Source: a virus
Virus genome (UHGV): UHGV-0168042
Reading direction: 5' to 3' (one strand)
DNA: 64,000 bases
The first letter of the stretch is position 1; each line of letters starts with the position of its first letter. The notes below the pieces were generated by a model. The model was given only the letters and a program-made list of their open reading frames with translations. It was not told the DNA's origin and did no database searches. Below are positions 4,401 to 54,653 of this stretch, in pieces. A program made the position numbers and the translations under genes.

Positions 4401-5168
4401 TCACCCCATAGATATCGAGGTTTCGGTAATAATACGTTTTGCGTCCAACTCCCATGCTGTGATCACGTCTGTAATCACACTTATCGGCGCTTGTGTGGCA
4501 TAAATACGCTCTTCTCCAATTGGTGCTGAAACATCCGTAAAGCCGACTTCTTTGGCATCCTGTATCGAGCAAATCAGCGGGACCGGGACACGAACAAGGT
4601 GAGTGGTTGCTTCAAATTGTGTACCTGTCATCAGGCGAAGCCGTGCGCCCAGCGAATTACACATCAGACTCATGGTCGCTTTATCAGTTGCCATTAACGT
4701 AACGTCATACGTCAGAATGGCCTGGGTGTATTCCAGTTCTGCTAAAGGCATTCCGGTATCTGGTTCGCAAAAACTGGCTACTTTTTTGCGGTCAATCTGC
4801 TGATCATCGTTGATATAATTGATATCCATAGTGCGTGAGATATTGACCAGGGGGAGAGCATCCCGGTTAATGTTCTGGTTTTCAGGTTTTCTCCCTTGCC
4901 CGGCATTTGCGCGACGAACTGCTTTAAGAAACTCGATCGCATTGTCGAAACGGGCCATATAGACACGCTCTGCTGGTGGACGATTCAGGAATGACGCAAA
5001 GCGTTTTTCTTCCGGCGCGGGGGCCACCAGTAAGATATCAGAAAAAATGTTGCTGATTAGCGTCGCAAACGCGTTATCCACGTTTTCAAAGCCCGTGGTC
5101 TGGAATTTTCCTGTGCGTAAGGTTTGCCATTCACCGGTTCGCGCCAGGAGGGTTTTATTTGAAGTCAT
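4401..5168 (-). CDS. Hypothetical phage protein
   Basis: 255-aa ORF in the same minus-strand operon. Confidence 0.35.
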   Translation of the reverse strand: MTSNKTLLARTGEWQTLRTGKFQTTGFENVDNAFATLISNIFSDILLVAPAPEEKRFASFLNRPPAERVYMARFDNAIEFLKAVRRANAGQGRKPENQNINRDALPLVNISRTMDINYINDDQQIDRKKVASFCEPDTGMPLAELEYTQAILTYDVTLMATDKATMSLMCNSLGARLRLMTGTQFEATTHLVRVPVPLICSIQDAKEVGFTDVSAPIGEERIYATQAPISVITDVITAWELDAKRIITETSISMG

Positions 5169-13382: not shown

Positions 13383-13694
13383 ATTGGCAGCCTCCTTTTG
13401 CTAATTTAAGGAGCTACCGCGTGAGGTTCCAATCTCAATGGCGGTAGCACTGACTGGGTTGGAACTACCGGCGCAAAAGGGAACCGGCCTGCCTTTCGGC
13501 AGCCCAGCCAGCACTACCATTGATCTCTGAGCTAAACGCTACGTATGGCTGTGCGATGGCATGACACAAGAAAAGACGCTTTCGGCGTCTGTGTCGCCTT
13601 TTGCATTATCCGGGGTTCCAATCCCGGCACCCGTTTTTCTAAGGTGCCGTAGAAATATACCCCACGATAATGCCAGGGCGCAACAGTCAGTATT

Positions 13695-37274: not shown

Positions 37275-37663
37275 AAAGCAACACCACGCTTTTTAACGGC
37301 GGCATTCCACAGCTTATTCGCCATGTCCACCAGCTCTCGTTGCTCTTTTCGCGCCTGTTCGACTGATTTCCTGCTACAGTTTTTAACCAGTAAACTGCCG
37401 TATTCAGGGGTTCGCCCACGCACCTTGAACTGATATCCGTTCAGGCCATGCAACCAGTATTTTCGTGGGTAAACACGATCATCAAGCTCACAGATTGCCC
37501 TGCTTGAACGAACAAAATGACGAATGATGTTAGTTACACTTACTCGTGAAACATGGAGATGAGGGTATTTTTCTTTGGCGAGAGTGGTAATTTCAGTGAC
37601 TGTCAGATAGCAGTCAGCCCTGATCATGATATCCGCAATTTCTGCGCTGCTGATTTGTTCCAT
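37271..37663 (-). CDS. Hypothetical protein upstream of terminase (position of P1 late promoter activator Lpa)
   Basis: 130-aa ORF overlapping the terminase small-subunit start; operator-like site about 80 bp upstream; identity by position only. Confidence 0.3.
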   Translation of the reverse strand: MEQISSAEIADIMIRADCYLTVTEITTLAKEKYPHLHVSRVSVTNIIRHFVRSSRAICELDDRVYPRKYWLHGLNGYQFKVRGRTPEYGSLLVKNCSRKSVEQARKEQRELVDMANKLWNAAVKKRGVAL

Positions 37664-37741
37664 TAATCCCCCGGCAGGAAATGACCGAGGGGATGATAAT
37701 GAGAATGTTAAAACTGTATAGACTGGTAAAAAGATGATTAT

Positions 37742-37769
37742 ATTAGAAAATTAATATTAAATACCTAAC
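37742..37769. promoter_or_regulatory. Operator-like inverted repeat ATTAGA-N16-CCTAAC
   Basis: ATTAGAAAATTAATATTAAATACCTAAC in the 108-bp intergenic region upstream of 37271-37663. Confidence 0.45.
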
Positions 37770-37770
37770 A

Positions 37771-38163
37771 CTACCAGCGAGACAAACGAACAACATGTTT
37801 CACTTTTGCGATCCACTGTCCGCGATAACTATTGATTACGGCCTGTGCCAGCTTCAAATTGGCTTCAAAATCAGCCTTACTACCATCAGACTCCACCAGC
37901 ATTCCTCCATCTATTTCTGGTAAACATAGATAATCCTGCTCAACCTGCAGCGGCATTGATGGCTCTCTGAATGGCGTTACTTGCTCTGCTTTCCAGCGAA
38001 ATCTAACCCTCATCCCCCTGGTGGTCATTACTAGATAGCCTGTTATAGTGCTTTTATGGCCCACATCAGTACGCGTGGCATTGCATGACACGATCTTACA
38101 GTTAGCGATAGACCACTCCATATTGGTGGCCTGTTGAGTGCTTAATTTGGTAGTCCCGTACAT
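37771..38163 (-). CDS. Hypothetical protein
   Basis: 130-aa ORF. Confidence 0.4.
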   Translation of the reverse strand: MYGTTKLSTQQATNMEWSIANCKIVSCNATRTDVGHKSTITGYLVMTTRGMRVRFRWKAEQVTPFREPSMPLQVEQDYLCLPEIDGGMLVESDGSKADFEANLKLAQAVINSYRGQWIAKVKHVVRLSRW

Positions 38164-38738
38164 CAGAAAGCCTCCCAGTCAGTCGCGATAATATCCACAC
38201 CAGTTGCAAACCAGTCTGTCTGCGCCTGTAAATCACCATTCATCATTACCAGGCGAGGCATCACCATCACATCGCACCCTTCCACAATATCGAATGCCTC
38301 TTCCGGCAAGAATTCGAAGAGCTTTTCTTTGCTGCCAATGCTGCCACGGAACATCGATATATAGCTCCCTTTAGGCCATGATGTCCGCCGGGCATCAAGC
38401 CCTTTCATCATCCAGTAAAAAGCCGAGGAAAAAGGGATATTCTTTTTGCCAATGATTACATTATTCGCTTCTGTGTACTTCAGGAACTTAACTAACCTTA
38501 CCATTGACTCGGATAACGCAACGTATGGCTCATGATTGATTGCTGACACGCTTACACCGTGCAAATCCACGCTTACCACTGTCATATCACCGCTCTGTGC
38601 GGTTTCGATATTGACGCCTTTGCGAACTAATGAGGCGTAAAGTTCCTCTCGCTTTTTGGTCCAGCGTTCCCGCTTCCCTATGAAGTCACTCAAAATGAGA
38701 TCTTCTTCTGCATATGCGTTATCGTTCGCCATTAACAT
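38163..38738 (-). CDS. Hypothetical protein
   Basis: 191-aa ORF overlapping the downstream gene by 1 nt. Confidence 0.4.
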   Translation of the reverse strand: MLMANDNAYAEEDLILSDFIGKRERWTKKREELYASLVRKGVNIETAQSGDMTVVSVDLHGVSVSAINHEPYVALSESMVRLVKFLKYTEANNVIIGKKNIPFSSAFYWMMKGLDARRTSWPKGSYISMFRGSIGSKEKLFEFLPEEAFDIVEGCDVMVMPRLVMMNGDLQAQTDWFATGVDIIATDWEAF

Positions 38739-39113
38739 AACGTCTCCTTTTTTACACGCGCGACTATCCCCCGGAAGTACCGGTAGTGATGTCGTAACTT
38801 CGTATTAATTAAGGGGTACAGCCTGAGCGGCTATATGATGAATTGAAAGGAGTTGTGGCGGTGGTGCCTCCACCTGCCAGGTTAGCCACTCCTGGCGACG
38901 TCACTTATCAGAACGTAGTGAATGAAAATGGCTTCGTCACGAGCGCATAGCCGCAATTACCACAACGGAAACGGCGCTCACGCTAATTAAACGCCTTTTC
39001 CTGTTGTGCGCCGTGCTCTTCCGGCTGTCACACCGAATCGCCAGGATGGTGAATCCGCAGTCCGACGCTATGAACGGGGCTTGCACATTCCGGCTACCTG
39101 GTGTGCCCATGCA

Positions 39114-39137
39114 GTGTTAGTAAAAGGTACCTAACAG
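39114..39137. promoter_or_regulatory. Palindrome GTGTTAG-N10-CTAACAG (operator variant with shorter spacer)
   Basis: GTGTTAGTAAAAGGTACCTAACAG between tRNA-Ile and the 38163-38738 operon. Confidence 0.35.
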
Positions 39138-39190
39138 CTACACCAGACCGCTAACGACGCATGTGCCATACGCCGTGTTACAACCAAATG

Positions 39191-39266
39191 TGGTGGCCCC
39201 TACCGGACTTGAACCGGTGACCGTGCGATTATGAGTCGCCCGCTCTAACCACTGAGCTAAAGGGCC
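39191..39266 (-). tRNA. tRNA with CAU anticodon, most similar to tRNA-Ile2 (lysidine-modified, AUA-reading)
   Basis: GGCCCTTTAGCTCAGTGGTTAGAGCGGGCGACTCATAATCGCACGGTCACCGGTTCAAGTCCGGTAGGGGCCACCA; cloverleaf folds; anticodon stem-loop identical to E. coli ileX as recalled. Confidence 0.8.
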
Positions 39267-39420
39267 AGATTACTGTTAATTACGCTTACGCTTTTTGCCA
39301 GAACCGCGTAAGGCTTTTGCCGCTTGCTCTACCCCGTATGCAACCACCAGCAGAAATAAAAATGTCCACCAAGGGTTCTTGTCGGCAAACGTCCAAAATT
39401 CCATCATGTTCTCTATTTGG

Positions 39421-40248
39421 TTATTTCACCGGAACAAACGGAACAGCGGTATTACTGGTCATATACTGCGGTAGCGTTCCGTTCCATTTGTTGATCGCTT
39501 CCAACTCCATAACGCCGGGGTTCTGGCGCAGAGCCTCACCGCGTAAACGAATGGCATCAGCTTCAGCCTGGGCTTTTGTGCGAATGGCATCGGCCTGTCC
39601 GGCAGCTTCTGCGCGCAGCATGTTGGCTTCTGCTTCGCGTTGCTTGACTTCCTGCTCGCGTTGCAGAGTTTTCTGGTTCGCCGTGACTTTGGCATTAATG
39701 CTGTCGATAACGGTTGGCGGGTACTCCGGCTTGCCCACATATGAGAGGCTCATTACCTGAATACCGATGGGCGTCATTTCTTCCTGGATGTCTTTAAGAG
39801 CTGCATCCAGTAGTTCAGACTTGCCACCGTCGATAAATTTGTCGGTGGTCATTTTGCTGGCCAGTCGGTTAAGTGCGTCGGCAATCTTCTGGCGCAGGTC
39901 GGTGTCGGTAATGTCATCCACGCCTTTGCGGTAGGTCTGAAATACAGTTGTGACTTTTGCCGGATCAACCTTGTAAGCTACACCAATGTGGTAACCAATT
40001 GTTGTCCCGTCGCTCATTTGGAAGCTGAACGGATCATCATAGGTCTTCATTTGCTTAAAGGTCGGGAAGATATAAACTTCTGTGTTCCAGCCTGTCCAGT
40101 AGCGACCAACGCCAACTACTTCGCCGACACCTTTATCATCCCCCAGCTTATTTACTTTGATCCCTACATTGCCTGGTTCTACCCGGTCGCATCCGGTCAG
40201 ACATAAAGAACCAAAAATAATCGCTGCACTAATCAACGTTTTTTTCAT
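39421..40248 (-). CDS. SPFH/band-7 domain lipoprotein
   Basis: 275 aa; lipobox LTGC after signal peptide; Ala/Glu/Gln-rich C-terminal region typical of SPFH proteins. Confidence 0.6.
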   Translation of the reverse strand: MKKTLISAAIIFGSLCLTGCDRVEPGNVGIKVNKLGDDKGVGEVVGVGRYWTGWNTEVYIFPTFKQMKTYDDPFSFQMSDGTTIGYHIGVAYKVDPAKVTTVFQTYRKGVDDITDTDLRQKIADALNRLASKMTTDKFIDGGKSELLDAALKDIQEEMTPIGIQVMSLSYVGKPEYPPTVIDSINAKVTANQKTLQREQEVKQREAEANMLRAEAAGQADAIRTKAQAEADAIRLRGEALRQNPGVMELEAINKWNGTLPQYMTSNTAVPFVPVK

Positions 40249-40465
40249 TAATCAATTTCCTGGTTTTTTCACGAAAAAAGACTACTGCAAAAGCCGGGTA
40301 AATGAGCGCGAGAAGGACTCCCAACAATACAAGTATTGTGCTGTCAGATGAGATCATATTTGGCAAAAGCCAAACATACAGAACCAGTGACACAATCAAA
40401 CAGAGGACGACATAAATATATAACCGCACCCATAGCGTTCGACATTTGTTCGGATTGTTCTGCAT
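40229..40465 (-). CDS. Small integral membrane protein (possible SPFH partner)
   Basis: 78 aa; two hydrophobic helices; overlaps start of the SPFH gene. Confidence 0.45.
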   Translation of the reverse strand: MQNNPNKCRTLWVRLYIYVVLCLIVSLVLYVWLLPNMISSDSTILVLLGVLLALIYPAFAVVFFREKTRKLINEKNVD

Positions 40466-40783
40466 CCTCTCACTCCATTATTTAACGAATAAAAAAGCTG
40501 CGGTGCCTGGTGCCTCCAGGTGACGTTAACCAGTTAACAATTAACGCCGGGATGTTTGACTTAACCACTAAGGAGGATTGTTTTAACTGTTCCGCGTGCG
40601 CAATGGGACGGTTTTCAAGACTGCTTGAGCACCATGCTCCCTACTCTCCCGTTATTGTGGCGACCGGTGCTGATCTCCGGCTTGCGGTTATTTCAGACTC
40701 TCACGGGCGTTTAATTGCCCCGCCGAACAGCTCTTTTCCGCAATAGCTGCAATGTCTTTCGCGCATCAGCCTGCGCATTCACC

Positions 40784-40875
40784 ACAATGTTGAGAACACT
40801 GGTTGTCACGCTGCAACGCAACATTTATTCATAGATTGGGATATGACCCCGTTACGCCAGTGTTCTCAACGTTGT
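40784..40875. repeat. Near-perfect 19-bp inverted repeat flanking a 54-bp segment
   Basis: ACAATGTTGAGAACACTGG ... CCAGTGTTCTCAACGTTGT (18/19); intervening segment contains TTGTCA and TAGATT promoter-like hexamers. Confidence 0.4.
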
Positions 40876-41022
40876 AGTGCCGGTTACGGTTCCGGCCAGG
40901 CCTCTTCCTCAACGGGGTGTTCTCCATACGGACTACCGTTTATTGGTCGTTCCTGCGGTTTATGTTGTGAAGCCAGATGCTTATCTTCTGGTTGCTTCAA
41001 AGAGCTGCACTTCATCACAACG

Positions 41023-41096
41023 GTAAGGGTACTTCGTAGGGATTCGAACCCTCTGCCAAGCACGGCGATCTCCGACGTCGCAAAATACCCTTACCT
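41023..41096 (-). other. tRNA-like fragment (T-arm GGTTCGAATCC plus acceptor-like stem); probable tRNA remnant
   Basis: Contains GAGGGTTCGAATCCCTA and terminal GGTAAGG/CCTTACC pairing but cannot be folded into a canonical cloverleaf. Confidence 0.3.
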
Positions 41097-41103
41097 GTTG
41101 TGT

Positions 41104-41179
41104 TGGTGCCGGTTAACGGACTCGAACCGCTGACATCCTGCTTACAAGGCAGGCGCTCTACCAACTGAGCTAAACCGGC
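41104..41179 (-). tRNA. tRNA-Thr (anticodon UGU)
   Basis: GCCGGTTTAGCTCAGTTGGTAGAGCGCCTGCCTTGTAAGCAGGATGTCAGCGGTTCGAGTCCGTTAACCGGCACCA; canonical stems. Confidence 0.8.
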
Positions 41180-41181
41180 AT

Positions 41182-41258
41182 TGGCGATGGTGGGTGGATT
41201 CGAACCACCGACCGACAGCTTAGAAGGCTGCTGCTCTATCCTACTGAGCTACACCATC
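41182..41258 (-). tRNA. tRNA-Arg (anticodon UCU, AGA/AGG-reading)
   Basis: GATGGTGTAGCTCAGTAGGATAGAGCAGCAGCCTTCTAAGCTGTCGGTCGGTGGTTCGAATCCACCCACCATCGCCA; 2 nt from tRNA-Thr. Confidence 0.8.
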
Positions 41259-41710
41259 ACTTGCCGGGTACGTCTCCGGCGAGGGCTTCCACCTCCGTAT
41301 GCTTTTCGGCGCACCGCGCCCTGGCTGCAATTCGGTAACAGGGGATGCACAACCCTGGCTTCCAGCGTGATTAGCGCCTTCAGCATGACGGGATATACCC
41401 GTAGTAGGATGTTATCCCAGAAAGCCATTAATCAATGGCTGTTACGCGGGAGGGACGTAACAGGTAAGGGCGCTGACCAGAAAGACCTGACCCTTCTCAT
41501 TCATCTGGTTAATCACACCAGCGCCCTTGCCTGTTATGCCTCCCCGTTCCCTAATACACAGACGGGGACACTCTGCGGTCGATTTTTTGACGGGGGACGA
41601 CTCATACCCCGTGGCGTCTGGCTTCTTAGGCCGCTACCATCATCAGATCATCGTTTGCATTTACTTTAATGGTCAGTTTATAAACCGCCGCAAAGTCGCT
41701 AACCATGACG

Positions 41711-41742
41711 AAAACCCTAAAAAAGCCCACCCGAAGATGGGC
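41711..41742 (-). terminator. Rho-independent terminator on minus strand
   Basis: Minus strand: GCCCATCTTCGGGTGGGC followed by TTTTTTAGGGTTTT. Confidence 0.5.
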
Positions 41743-41761
41743 AAATACGCTACATCTCACA

Positions 41762-41840
41762 CAAGAAAGAAGCCGACTGCCTGAGCTGGATTCACTTTCA
41801 AATGCCCGCTGAAAGGGATCACAAGTCGGCTTCTTTCTTG
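41762..41840. repeat. Perfect 16-bp inverted repeat (long stem-loop) with about 45-nt loop
   Basis: AAGAAAGAAGCCGACT ... AGTCGGCTTCTTTCTT; lies just upstream (minus strand) of the terminator in an ORF-poor region. Confidence 0.4.
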
Positions 41841-42463
41841 ATGCGGCACTCTCTCCGCCCGTCACCGCTCTGTCTCGGTTGTCGCGTTTGCCACGCCAGC
41901 CGTAACGAGGTTTAAAGTCTTTGCACGTTTCCATCACTCGACTGCCGTCTGTGGCTGTTCGTTGCAGCGGGGGTGCCTCCCCCTGGGGATATCCCCGGCC
42001 TTACCCCATTCTTTCAAGACACAATGCAAGGCCACATCCGCATAGGTGCATTACCGCAACATTAAGGAGACTCAGGGCAAAAGGTAACCGCCACAAAAAT
42101 CCCTATGCCTCCTTAATGTTGAAGATGTGCATTGATGATTAGATGCAGCATGTACCGTTACTCTCTGCCGGACCATCATCAATAAACACCTTAAAAAGGC
42201 CTTCCGTGGCTCAACATGTATTGTCGTTTACTCCGCAAAGTGCTCTCTCTGAAACCACTTTCCGCACTAAACCTGCTGAACTTTGGCCTGCACGGTGCCA
42301 AAGCGTGCTCTTGCGTTACTATACTTTTCTAACACTTTAATTTGTTAAATGCTGGTGGGCGAACAATAACCAATAAGTGACTATCAAGCCCAGCAAGCGA
42401 AACGTGGGTACCGCCCACCAGCAAGGAAAATTCTATGTTAAGTTACCTTCACAATCAATACAT

Positions 42464-42491
42464 TCGAATTGTGATTTTAGATTTCTAACAC
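42464..42491. promoter_or_regulatory. Operator-like site ATTCGA-N16-TCTAAC (left half degenerate)
   Basis: Spacer ATTGTGATTTTAGATT resembles the spacer of the 20075 site; a second half-site TTTTCTAACAC lies at about 42325-42335. Confidence 0.35.
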
Positions 42492-42492
42492 A

Positions 42493-43701
42493 TTATTTCC
42501 CGTAAAGATCTTCTACACCCCCATTATTCTTATCCCATTCGTTCGCCCATACCCGGCAAGCGTCAATGATTTCCTGACGACGATCTCCTTGCATGAACGG
42601 AATGCTTTCATGGAAACAGCTTGGAATGCAGGCCACACTGAATACAGTATCAAACTCCGTCTGCTTGATTGCCTCCAGCGTCTCCGGACGCATTTTTAAT
42701 TCATCGATTGGCGCATCCTTAGAGTCCATAATCCGGCGATATAAGCACGGAAAATCCGTCTCCAGGTACGCCATAATTTTATCTGCGAGACATTCGTCTA
42801 TGTCGGTATTCCAGTCCTTTTCGAAGCCCGGCAGGCGATAGTAAAGCGGCGTTCCCCATACCGATGGGATCACATCCATCGTTAACAGGCGATTGGTTCT
42901 GATTTGTTGATGGTAATTAGCCGTCAGCAGTGCTTCGCCACGCTGCCCAGTTTCCGCAACCAGGCCGTGCGGATACTCATGGATGTAGGCAATGGCATCC
43001 CTTCCGTCATACATAAGTGGAAATGTCTCTGGTCTTTGTCCCATGCCACAAGCACGGTTCAGATCGTGACCAAGCTGTGAGCACTCTCGCTTTAATGTTT
43101 CGATAATGCTCTGCGCTGTAGCCAACTTTTTACGCAGTGTGACGCCTTCGCCTTGATAATCAATGCATTGCTGATTGAGCTTGGTTAAACGCTCTTTTAG
43201 TTCCCGGCGCTCTCTTTTCAGCGTGCGGTTATCCTTCTCCGCAACATCCAGCCGCTTTGTCAGGCTGGGCGGATAGTCTTTTTTGTAACGGTTCAAATCG
43301 GCTTCGGCAGATTTACGCAGTGTATTTGCCTGTTCAAGACGCGCTTCCAGATTGCCGATCTCATTACGCATATTCGCGGCAAATTGATTAACTGCATCAC
43401 CCAGGCTTTCAACTGTCGCTGATACGCCTGTGACTTGTGAAAAACGGATCAAGCCATCATTAACGGCTTGTTGGTATTCCTCAAACTGATCCACCAGCTT
43501 ATTGTAATCAACTGCCCCATCATCAAGCAGCTTGTTGATTTCCGCCACCAGGTTATCTGTAGTGGCAATGACACTCTCGTGCAGTCGCTTTGACAGGTCA
43601 TCACCCGGATTCCGTTTCTGTATAAGAGCGATTTGTGTGCGCAGCGTTTCAATTGCTGTCGAGATAATTTCCAGATTAGAAGTATCAGTGTGTTGACTCA
43701 T
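42493..43701 (-). CDS. Hypothetical protein with N-terminal coiled coil
   Basis: 402-aa ORF; operator-like 19-mer about 20-38 nt upstream of the ATG. Confidence 0.5.
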   Translation of the reverse strand: MSQHTDTSNLEIISTAIETLRTQIALIQKRNPGDDLSKRLHESVIATTDNLVAEINKLLDDGAVDYNKLVDQFEEYQQAVNDGLIRFSQVTGVSATVESLGDAVNQFAANMRNEIGNLEARLEQANTLRKSAEADLNRYKKDYPPSLTKRLDVAEKDNRTLKRERRELKERLTKLNQQCIDYQGEGVTLRKKLATAQSIIETLKRECSQLGHDLNRACGMGQRPETFPLMYDGRDAIAYIHEYPHGLVAETGQRGEALLTANYHQQIRTNRLLTMDVIPSVWGTPLYYRLPGFEKDWNTDIDECLADKIMAYLETDFPCLYRRIMDSKDAPIDELKMRPETLEAIKQTEFDTVFSVACIPSCFHESIPFMQGDRRQEIIDACRVWANEWDKNNGGVEDLYGK

Positions 43702-54323: not shown

Positions 54324-54653
54324 AGTTACGGCCTCACTAACAGGTTTAACAACCTGCTACCCGCTGTCAAACAGGTGGCAGGACGTGACAGGGTTGACAG
54401 ACTGGCGTTAGTGAAACCAGCAGGCCGAAGCCTCCCCATCACGCCCCACCATAATTCGGGCGTAACGCGGTTTACGGACACAAAAATACCGCAATATCGG
54501 AAATCTGCGGTTGTCCGCACTAACATTCAGGCTGTCAAACCTGGTCGCAGAATTTGCTACGACGGCATGAATATAAGCCTGAAAACATGGAAGATCAACT
54601 AAAAATTTCAGCAATGGATGACTTCAGTCGATGATGCAGATCATACATTCCGA

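Follow-up and report, generated by a model that had tools for sequence, protein, structure and literature searches.

The segment between positions 39,191 and 41,258 of the virus genome UHGV-0168042 carries three transfer RNA (tRNA) genes, among which lie the genes for an SPFH lipoprotein and a small membrane protein and a 74-nt tRNA-like element. This arrangement raises the question of how protein genes came to stand inside a tRNA cluster, and an initial annotation of the 64,000-nt window (the whole stretch of DNA that was analysed) had suggested that they look like cargo acquired at a former tRNA gene. Our analysis makes it likely that we are dealing with the tRNA/moron segment of a phage-plasmid of D6-like type, related to P1, with genuine tRNAs and with the SPFH pair placed in an interchangeable cargo slot.

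The segment matches P1-like and D6-like phages and plasmids at 92-98% nucleotide identity with the gene order kept, and it was matched in more than 1,100 plasmids from Escherichia coli, Klebsiella and Salmonella. The flanks are of D6 type, with Lpa and PacAB downstream and a PmgS-like gene upstream, and the D6 backbone on either side of the locus is 95-97% identical to the window; positions 40761-41745 are 93% identical to P1. The closest relative overall is pRHB04-C06_3 (CP058021), with 96.5% identity over the whole query. Read along the minus strand, the order is a structured leader, tRNA-Arg(UCU), tRNA-Thr(UGU), long hairpins, a dead tRNA-Ser, a 78-amino-acid membrane protein (TM78), the SPFH lipoprotein, a TciC-like peptide of 43 amino acids (p43) and tRNA-Ile2(CAU), followed by downstream early genes (a Tad2-like protein and Lpa). 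The ban operon of P1 is annotated as tRNA-Asn, tRNA-Thr, the opposite-strand genes upl/plp, tciA-tciB-tciC, tRNA-Ile2 and ban (NC_005856), and a paper on a D6-like plasmid prophage names a "tRNAs region" and counts tciA/tciB as morons (PMC6799933). The tRNA/tci region is already annotated in the P1 family, and the window is a new combination of familiar parts. Two stretches of a 5.9-kb contig labelled "MAG: Bacillota bacterium" (JAFAFU010000017.1, L131), about 1.5 kb in total, are also ~95% identical to the window; this contig is probably mis-binned or a contaminant.

Relatives of the locus were collected as 120 IMG/VR loci, by means of a pattern running from the last part of tRNA-Thr into the first part of the following hairpin, plus five annotated references, and the content of the slot was typed in the 82 loci having enough downstream sequence. 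TciA-TciB were detected in 34 loci and the SPFH pair in 33, eight slots are empty and seven belong to another phage type. The arrangements are TciA-TciB-TciC-Ban (32 loci), TM78-SPFH-Ban (26), an empty slot with the TciC-like gene and D6-type genes (8), the other phage type with integrase, glutaredoxin-like and PhoH-like genes (7), TM78-SPFH-p43 with D6-type genes including the Tad2-like one (6, the window among them), TciA-TciB-p43 with the same D6-type genes (2) and TM78-SPFH at the end of a locus (1). The TerB-like TciA and the small TciB of P1, found in 34 relatives by tblastn, are absent from the window, where only the TciC homolog remains. Alignment of the SPFH, TciAB and empty alleles showed that the allele junctions are exact, with a conserved short hairpin on one side (Table 1) and the start codon of the TciC-like gene on the other. 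Because the SPFH pair is present in 33 of the 82 loci and on both backbones, with exact borders, we regard it as interchangeable cargo. The initial proposal therefore stands as far as cargo is concerned, the pair not being found at this position in all relatives, and falls as far as a former tRNA gene is concerned, the borders being a hairpin and a start codon.

At both cargo junctions, tRNA sequence, direct repeats and an integrase are absent, and no integrase open reading frame (ORF) was found in 37500-43000; the SPFH pair does not show the integrase and duplicated 3' tRNA part of a genomic island in a tRNA gene. The SPFH allele of the RCS47 type, which is on a P1 backbone, keeps the 3' end of the D6-type p43 gene, and this points to transfer between the backbones by homologous recombination. 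The alleles of the slot (TciA-TciB, membrane protein plus SPFH, or empty) would be exchanged between P1-type and D6-type backbones, probably by homologous recombination through the conserved tRNA and hairpin flanks, which plausibly supply the homology for such cassette exchange.

The real tRNA remnant of the locus is a fragment of tRNA-Ser(UGA) that had been missed by the initial annotation. The intact 87-nt tRNA-Ser(UGA) of D6 and pRHB04-C06_3 sits between the hairpins and the cargo; in the window a 157-bp deletion with a 9-bp microhomology (40593-40601) has taken away its 3' ~30 nt together with the next hairpin. None of the PLSDB matches listed covers the deletion junction in one piece, the ten whole-query plasmids covering it in two pieces, and the junction was found in none of the IMG/VR loci. 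SPFH-bearing relatives keep an intact tRNA-Ser. The deletion is recent and private, and has nothing to do with how the SPFH pair arrived.

In the 64-kb window ARAGORN called three tRNAs and no others, all of them minus-strand genes at the coordinates first annotated as Arg-UCU, Thr-UGU and CAU/Ile2, and all three score above the gathering score of 29 of Rfam RF00005, so that both predictors accept these loci as intact tRNA genes. CCA is encoded in each of the three. The CAU tRNA shows C4:G69 and C5:G68, which are determinants for TilS. It is 89.5% identical to the chromosomal tRNA-Ile(CAU), a gene present in all 5,426 complete E. coli genomes, and a plasmid copy 100% identical to it is annotated as tRNA-Ile by PGAP. 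Its P1 homolog is recorded as tRNA-Ile2, 89% identical to ileX (NC_005856). Because of these three matches, its assignment from sequence to the lysidine-dependent, AUA-reading Ile2 type is sound; lysidine and charging are predicted.

The cluster is one form of a modular array. Over ~127 loci, ARAGORN found Thr-UGU in 115, Asn-GUU in 106, CAU in 88, Ser-UGA in 40, Tyr-GUA in 34, Arg-UCU in 15 and Ile-UAU in 1. The first position is taken by Asn or Arg, Tyr and Ser being optional; the Arg allele accounts for 15 of ~121 first-position genes, and in the window it replaces the tRNA-Asn(GUU) of P1 and D6. Comparison of the window gene (41182-41258, minus strand) with those at 4778-4853 of the P1 locus (L001) and 5367-5441 of L005 showed that the Arg and Asn genes have an identical acceptor stem and discriminator (GATGGTG...CACCATC-G-CCA) and differ in the D-loop and anticodon arm. 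The D-loop change of the Arg allele adds an A at the A20 position, a determinant for arginyl-tRNA synthetase (ArgRS). The alternation suggests a switch of tRNA identity, or else recombination, on a single scaffold and offers, with its identical acceptor stem, a compact example of tRNA identity change. The tRNA-Asn of Ro157c2YLVW carries the T-arm of the Arg allele, and at >=95% identity no record of the GenBank phage collection holds the Arg allele. In one IMG/VR relative (L089) the Ile2 gene, ~1955 nt downstream of tRNA-Thr, has the anticodon TAT, not CAT, and this tRNA-Ile(UAU) would read AUA without lysidine. Contigs of another phage type (L028, L043, L068, L109, L114, L121 and L125), which reach ~106-111 kb and encode an integrase and a glutaredoxin-like protein, together with a PhoH-like protein in L121, likewise contain the tRNA-Asn/(Tyr)/Thr/Ser array and its hairpins. 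Since the array is found in a different phage type, the RNA module itself moves between phage families.

Table 1. Features of the tRNA/moron segment and its borders (window coordinates)
Feature	Position	Strand	Evidence
Shorter family hairpin after tRNA-Ile, CACAAC-A-GGAAAAGGCG ... CGCCGUUUCC-GUUGUG	38961-39008	-	Pattern match; z = -2.7; terminator-like
tRNA-Ile2 type, anticodon CAU, 76 nt	39191-39266	-	ARAGORN; Rfam RF00005 66.7 bits
43-amino-acid TciC-like single-helix peptide (p43)	39276-39407	-	BLASTP against P1 TciC, 39% identity, E 2e-8
275-amino-acid SPFH/Band-7 lipoprotein	39421-40248	-	Pfam PF01145 7.8e-31; PHROG 200 "lipoprotein" 1.4e-114
78-amino-acid two-helix membrane protein (TM78), first cargo gene	40229-40465	-	ORF; PHROG 1130 "membrane protein, moron" 2.4e-15
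Conserved short hairpin CCTGGAGGCACCAGGCACCGCA, upstream border of the cargo slot	40499-40520	-	Multiple alignment of SPFH, TciAB and empty alleles
Truncated tRNA-Ser(UGA), 5' 53 nt including the anticodon loop	40597-40649	-	Alignment with the intact 87-nt gene of D6 and pRHB04-C06_3
Second long hairpin, 23-nt arms, 91% complementary, base CACUACAAC / UUGUGGUG-AAUGCGC	40780-40879	-	Inverted repeat; z = -5.27
Long hairpin "type A", 87 nt, core = 74-nt element 41022-41095	41016-41102	-	Fold; same in P1, RCS47 and D6
tRNA-Thr(UGU), 76 nt	41104-41179	-	ARAGORN; Rfam 74.9 bits; near-identical to P1 tRNA-Thr
tRNA-Arg(UCU), 77 nt	41182-41258	-	ARAGORN; Rfam 72.1 bits; allele comparison
Family hairpin upstream of tRNA-Arg, 27-nt arms	41456-41538	-	Inverted repeat; z = -4.49
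Mini-ORF ANDDLMMVAA*, resembling a transfer-messenger RNA (tmRNA) tag	41626-41658	-	Rfam tmRNA_permuted 25.4 bits; conserved in relatives

The role of the three tRNAs was approached through codon usage, in a comparison of 62 approximately called window ORFs (16,240 codons) with 65 annotated E. coli K-12 genes (49 kb). Per 1000 codons, the window ORFs and the E. coli sample have 11.8 and 3.4 ATA, 14.1 and 7.2 ACA, and 6.3 and 1.8 AGA, respectively. The three tRNAs read AUA, ACA and AGA, as stated in the initial annotation, and these codons are 2-3.5 times commoner in the window ORFs. The annotation's suggestion that the tRNAs help the translation of AT-rich cargo genes does not fit: the SPFH gene has a GC content of 50% (47.9% in the window) with 0 AUA, 0 AGA and 6 ACA codons, and the only AT-rich cargo gene is the one for TM78, with 39% GC. 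The bias is genome-wide and not centred on the cargo. The enrichment would also have suited the lost tRNA-Ser, TCA standing at 12.6 against 6.3. The tRNAs would add decoding capacity for the A-ending codons AGA, ACA and AUA, which are served by minor host tRNAs, and we slightly favor such codon supplementation as their main role.

The 74-nt element starts eight bases after tRNA-Thr, with a perfect 10-bp terminal stem and an internal GGTTCGAATCC, and forms the core of the type A hairpin, whose stem consists of 6 bp, a bulged A and a further 15 bp and encloses a T-arm-like GAGGGTTCGAATCCCTA. Its minimum-energy fold is a long hairpin and no cloverleaf, as first noted (-40.8 kcal/mol, z = -5.5, with 0 of 200 shuffles folding as well). 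The 11-mer GGTTCGAATCC occurs only twice in the window, in this element and in the T-arm of tRNA-Arg, which makes a tRNA descent of the element plausible; its tRNA-like part is the T-arm-like 17-mer only. The element received no tRNA call from ARAGORN at default settings and no Rfam tRNA match at E<=10 in a 644-nt search. It was rejected as a tRNA or tmRNA, the Rfam search at E<=10 and ARAGORN thresholds of 70% and 60% giving noise only; at 70%, ARAGORN returned only poor, mismatched calls across the region. The type A hairpin is found in about 91 of 126 loci directly after tRNA-Thr, whichever the cargo. It is a conserved hairpin, carried by P1 itself together with tciAB, and not the remnant or insertion scar for which the 74-nt fragment had been taken.

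In relatives, four further unrelated interiors of 43-64 nt are found inside the same conserved stem base (CAYAAC-A-GGUAAG...CUUACC-GUUGUG), and these also fold strongly (z -5.4 to -7.9). Between the five types, both partners have changed with pairing preserved at 6 of the 21 stem positions. In types A-D, the G-U pairs would be A-C mismatches on the opposite strand, which argues for an RNA acting in the tRNA sense. At least four long hairpins in the window share the base, and within the window the motif is confined to the tRNA locus; the family as a whole has stems of 21-27 bp, tops of 14-54 nt, the base CAYAAC...GUUGYG-RUGAAUGCG and z-scores from -2.7 to -7.9. The second long hairpin is conserved in P1, D6 and RCS47, and the one upstream of tRNA-Arg shows one compensatory pair (CG in 31 and UA in 11) across 47 relatives. 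RNase III cuts about two turns of double-stranded RNA, a size matched by stems of 21-23 bp. Such stems are predicted here, with strong z-scores and compensatory changes, and the hairpins would act as RNA in the tRNA sense, as RNase III-type processing or stabilizing structures that separate the tRNAs from the mRNA. We put forward nuclease-processing or stabilizing sites only tentatively, at about one chance in three.

The leader upstream of the tRNAs contains two near-invariant blocks (41259-41401 and 41540-41717, minus strand), with 0-3 polymorphic columns per 30 nt across 47 distinct relatives, and between them a hypervariable stretch with 9-27. An RNAalifold consensus of the 492-501-nt leader gave one fully compensatory pair only, too little for an overall fold. 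In the upstream block, ~370 nt from tRNA-Arg, lies the mini-ORF GCA AAC GAT GAT CTG ATG ATG GTA GCG GCC TAA, which Rfam tmRNA_permuted matches at 25.4 bits (E 0.0064 in a 1.2-kb search), below the gathering score of 47. The motif was detected in 101 of 126 loci, including P1, with the variants ANDNLMMVAA and ANDDLMMAAA (the latter reached via two different Ala codons) and one synonymous change. The tag could be read as the end of an ordinary 26-amino-acid ORF, which fits the window (TAT), but most relatives have an in-frame TAG upstream of it and no start codon. A complete tmRNA around the tag was also rejected. Searches near the tag, hand inspection of acceptor and T-arm pairings among them, revealed no tRNA-like domain that has CCA and an acceptor stem with G3:U70, ARAGORN called no tmRNA in the window or in ~130 related loci (thresholds of 60% gave arbitrary domains only), and outside the tag no similarity to E. 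coli ssrA was detected, the best local score of 23 lying within the shuffle range. A bacterial source was rejected as well, the tag being found in P1-like contigs only among 185,579 GTDB species representatives. The peptide string ANDDLMMVAA was not found in the papers searched. Either a captured tmRNA, now a fossil, or a functional mimic could explain the motif.

Of the two cargo genes, the second encodes the SPFH/Band-7 lipoprotein of the initial annotation: PF01145 matches residues 22-208 with 107.9 bits (gathering score 23.6), and the translation shows a lipobox L17-T18-G19-C20 (MKKTLISAAIIFGSLCLTG-C20; pattern [LVI][ASTVI][GAS]C), followed by Asp at +2, of a predicted lipoprotein. The two-helix TM78 is the small membrane partner, and its ORF overlaps the SPFH start by 20 nt. 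Genes of phiP27, Stx phages and P88 match the SPFH gene at 88-89% nucleotide identity, and TM78 is 48% identical (E 2e-21) to the membrane protein encoded upstream of an SPFH lipoprotein in the P2-like phage P88. P88 has the pair of membrane protein and SPFH lipoprotein in its early region. Stx phages and phiP27 have the SPFH gene beside int-xis, in phiP27 likewise in the early region. These occurrences indicate a mobile two-gene module of E. coli temperate phages. The nearest solved relative of the SPFH protein is HflK, a weak match (E 2.4e-4), and its scores for the HflK/HflC equivalogs stay far below the cut-offs (TIGR01932, 25.3 against 134.4 bits; TIGR01933, 23.5 against 159.4). No Pfam or NCBIfam NfeD match was found for TM78. 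The TciC-like peptide, missed by the initial annotation, is present in D6-type empty, TciAB and SPFH alleles and is a backbone component rather than cargo.

Lipoproteins with Asp at +2 behind the lipidated Cys stay in the inner membrane (the Lol-avoidance rule), and the presence of this residue here predicts inner-membrane retention of the SPFH protein as a periplasm-facing scaffold. We infer an HflK/C-like scaffold, lipid-anchored in the inner membrane and facing the periplasm, that with its two-helix partner would form a membrane microdomain or cage altering envelope physiology early in lytic growth; possible roles would be envelope protection, modulation of FtsH or exclusion of other phages. 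Any one specific mechanism is doubtful, at about one chance in five. Since all features lie on the minus strand and no strong internal promoter or terminator was detected from 41718 to 39000 (a consensus scan found no internal promoter for the SPFH pair), the whole segment would most likely be expressed as a single polycistronic early transcript.

Several observations weigh against parts of this interpretation. No P1-type C1 operator was found in the window, the single-operon view draws on strand, spacing and the annotation of the P1 ban operon, and a terminator-like hairpin (41719-41742) lies upstream of the tRNAs. Because tRNA-Asn(GUU) and tRNA-Tyr(GUA), present in relatives, serve common codons, codon supplementation cannot account for every array of the family. 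In the hairpin upstream of tRNA-Arg, pairs that would be G-U on the other strand are A-C mismatches in the tRNA sense, so the strand of action is not uniform across the hairpin family, and the compensatory differences between types could stem from independent inverted duplications. As regards the SPFH mechanism, the known anti-phage defense systems of PADLOC-DB v2 gave, at E<=0.1, no match for the SPFH protein, TM78, p43 or the 191- and 130-amino-acid proteins.

The tRNA-like features of the locus invite other readings, of which the one implied by the initial annotation is an SPFH island integrated site-specifically into a tRNA gene, with the 74-nt fragment as the leftover target. tRNA genes are common integration targets, the element has a canonical T-loop 11-mer with only two window copies, and the truncated tRNA-Ser lies ~130 nt upstream of the cargo. 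The element, however, stands ~550 nt from the cargo border and is near-unchanged in TciAB (P1, D6), SPFH and empty-slot loci, and with hairpin and start-codon borders that hold no trace of tRNA, repeat or integrase, and a tRNA-Ser truncation that is a separate event from which SPFH-bearing relatives are free, such an island is hardly credible. The hairpin might instead be the by-product of a protein encoded antisense to it, the putative lipoprotein Plp: in the records of P1 and RCS47, upl and plp appear as plus-strand ORFs with predicted promoters (P1 plp at 4352-4729 of L001, plus strand), and a 96-amino-acid window ORF (40843-41133, plus strand) is 99% identical to the C-terminal 96 amino acids of P1 Plp. 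Yet this ORF crosses the hairpin in antisense and extends 30 nt into tRNA-Thr, and what it encodes at its C-terminus (...RRDSNPLP...) is simply the T-arm motif read on the opposite strand. Its length follows the hairpin swaps, with 125 amino acids in P1, 139 in RCS47 and the C-terminal 96 open in the window. The product would be Cys- and Ser-rich and of low complexity, and where a relative has another hairpin interior, this protein cannot be encoded. We therefore give a coding origin of the hairpin very little credence, and the P1 "plp" ORF is probably a mis-annotation of a structured RNA.

A more serious competitor concerns the tRNAs themselves, which might serve mainly as anti-defense spares, standing in for host tRNAs that anticodon nucleases, colicins or retron effectors have cleaved or depleted. 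Asn and Tyr tRNAs are targets of colicin E5 and Arg tRNA is a target of colicin D; the first gene of the array alternates between Asn and Arg on one scaffold, the tRNA-Asn and tRNA-Tyr of relatives read common codons, and the gene with the Tad2-like anti-Thoeris domain lies just downstream in the same orientation. Phage tRNAs have been reported to replace host tRNAs destroyed by anticodon nucleases (PMC11555353, PMC10264068) and to rescue infection from tRNA-targeting defenses, tRNA-Tyr against retron-Eco7 PtuAB and tRNA-Lys against PrrC (PMC11555353). All three window tRNAs, in contrast, read host-rare codons that are enriched in the phage ORFs, and no anticodon-loop peculiarity was demonstrated in them. 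Anti-defense as the main role holds perhaps one chance in four, and as the two roles are not mutually exclusive they can coexist. Another possibility is that the 74-nt element and its hairpin family are functional tRNA-like RNAs, either a T-arm decoy or a part of a trans-translation-like system using the tag as template. The canonical T-loop hairpin of type A has a counterpart in type D (GTAGAGTTCGACTCTCTAC), the conserved ANDDLMMVAA* lies ~530 nt upstream of the element, its Val-to-Ala changes use two Ala codons, the upstream in-frame TAG and missing start keep it from being an ordinary ORF in most relatives, and the local Rfam tmRNA_permuted search gave E 0.0064. The co-occurrence of interchangeable tRNAs (the Asn-to-Arg switch), T-loop-bearing hairpins and a start-less tag template would make the ~2-kb "non-coding" tRNA stretch of P1/D6 phage-plasmids a translation-RNA island, that is, a trans-translation mimic or decoy or an RNA-processing platform. 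Three of the five hairpin interiors, though, have no canonical T-loop, and the missing G3:U70 and CCA domain, the negative ARAGORN result, the sub-gathering Rfam scores and the lack of ssrA similarity beyond the tag leave both the tRNA-like RNA and the wider island improbable. The reading we prefer remains that of genuine tRNAs and conserved hairpins flanking an exchangeable cargo slot.

The SPFH allele is already present in sequenced phages such as RCS47, and the locus largely rediscovers the tRNA/moron region of the P1 family. As a two-state (plus empty) polymorphism on P1 and D6 backbones, the slot is a convenient natural system for the functions of the TerB-like and the SPFH membrane modules. 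Further work may be worthwhile on the hairpin family and the tag-like motif only. P1 has been studied as a model phage for 70 years, and it carries both the conserved hairpins and the tmRNA-tag-like motif; as far as we found in a literature check lying outside the P1 and D6 genome papers, both are apparently undescribed in P1.

Other features were observed elsewhere in the window. Just downstream of tRNA-Ile, a 191-amino-acid protein (38163-38738, minus strand) has a Pfam Tad2-like (Thoeris anti-defense 2) domain in residues 103-190 (1.1e-9, 39.1 bits, cut-off 25). A D6-specific stretch of ~750 nt (41743-42492, minus strand) has no plausible ORF and contains a sigma-70-like promoter (42458..42430), an intrinsic-terminator-like hairpin (41742..41719) and, between them, long inverted repeats at 42350-42423, 42119-42195, 42057-42121 and 41762-41840, and may be an uncharacterized non-coding RNA. 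Farther away, the minus-strand stretches 13437-13524, 13569-13647, 54371-54456 and 54524-54576 hold two C4 antisense-RNA loci (76.7 and 68.8 bits) together with an isrK-like RNA and a c4-a1b1 target element. These agree with the pair of immunity-type regions that has been reported for D6-like plasmids.

Among known systems, P1 is similar to the window in its near-identical tRNA-Thr and tRNA-Ile2, the same hairpin after tRNA-Thr, a tciC homolog immediately ahead of tRNA-Ile and a leader that includes the tag-like motif and the terminator of the "dicF-like" region. It differs in the first tRNA (Asn(GUU) in P1, Arg(UCU) in the window), in carrying tciA-tciB where the window has the membrane protein and SPFH pair, and in having ban-dbn downstream in place of the Tad2-like protein, Lpa and PacAB. 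D6 (NC_050154; with the D6-like pYU39_89, PMC6799933) has the same backbone on both sides and a tRNA region that carries morons, but its order is Asn-Thr-Ser...TciA-TciB...Ile, against Arg-Thr-(truncated Ser)...TM78-SPFH...Ile in the window. RCS47, vB_EcoM-Ro157c2YLVW and pRHB04-C06_3 have the same SPFH lipoprotein in the same slot, annotated as "putative serine protease" or "lipoprotein"; RCS47 differs in its P1 backbone and tRNA-Asn, and pRHB04-C06_3 in having five tRNAs (Arg, Tyr, Thr, Ser and Ile) and a hairpin interior of type D. The tRNA clusters of T4 and T5, with which small stable RNAs and nuclease processing sites are associated, likewise place tRNA genes in a polycistronic phage transcript beside structured RNAs that are not tRNAs; they have no sequence relation to the P1/D6 hairpins, with their ~21-bp stems, conserved base and interchangeable interiors.

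The tag-like motif resembles the SsrA tag (ANDENYALAA against ANDDLMMVAA) in having ten codons, beginning with AND and ending in VAA-stop, and tmRNA in having U and A at -5 and -4 before the GCA resume-like codon and, in most relatives, no start codon; unlike tmRNA, it has no tRNA-like domain and stays below the Rfam and ARAGORN thresholds. The SPFH protein shares with HflK/HflC a Band-7 domain followed by a coiled-coil region and a predicted periplasm-facing, membrane-anchored position, but has a lipid anchor in place of a transmembrane helix, scores far below the equivalog cut-offs and lacks an NfeD partner. The prophage SPFH lipoproteins that can be set beside it include phiP27 L05, the P88 gp12 pair and Pasteurella PM0222 (PMC9872710).

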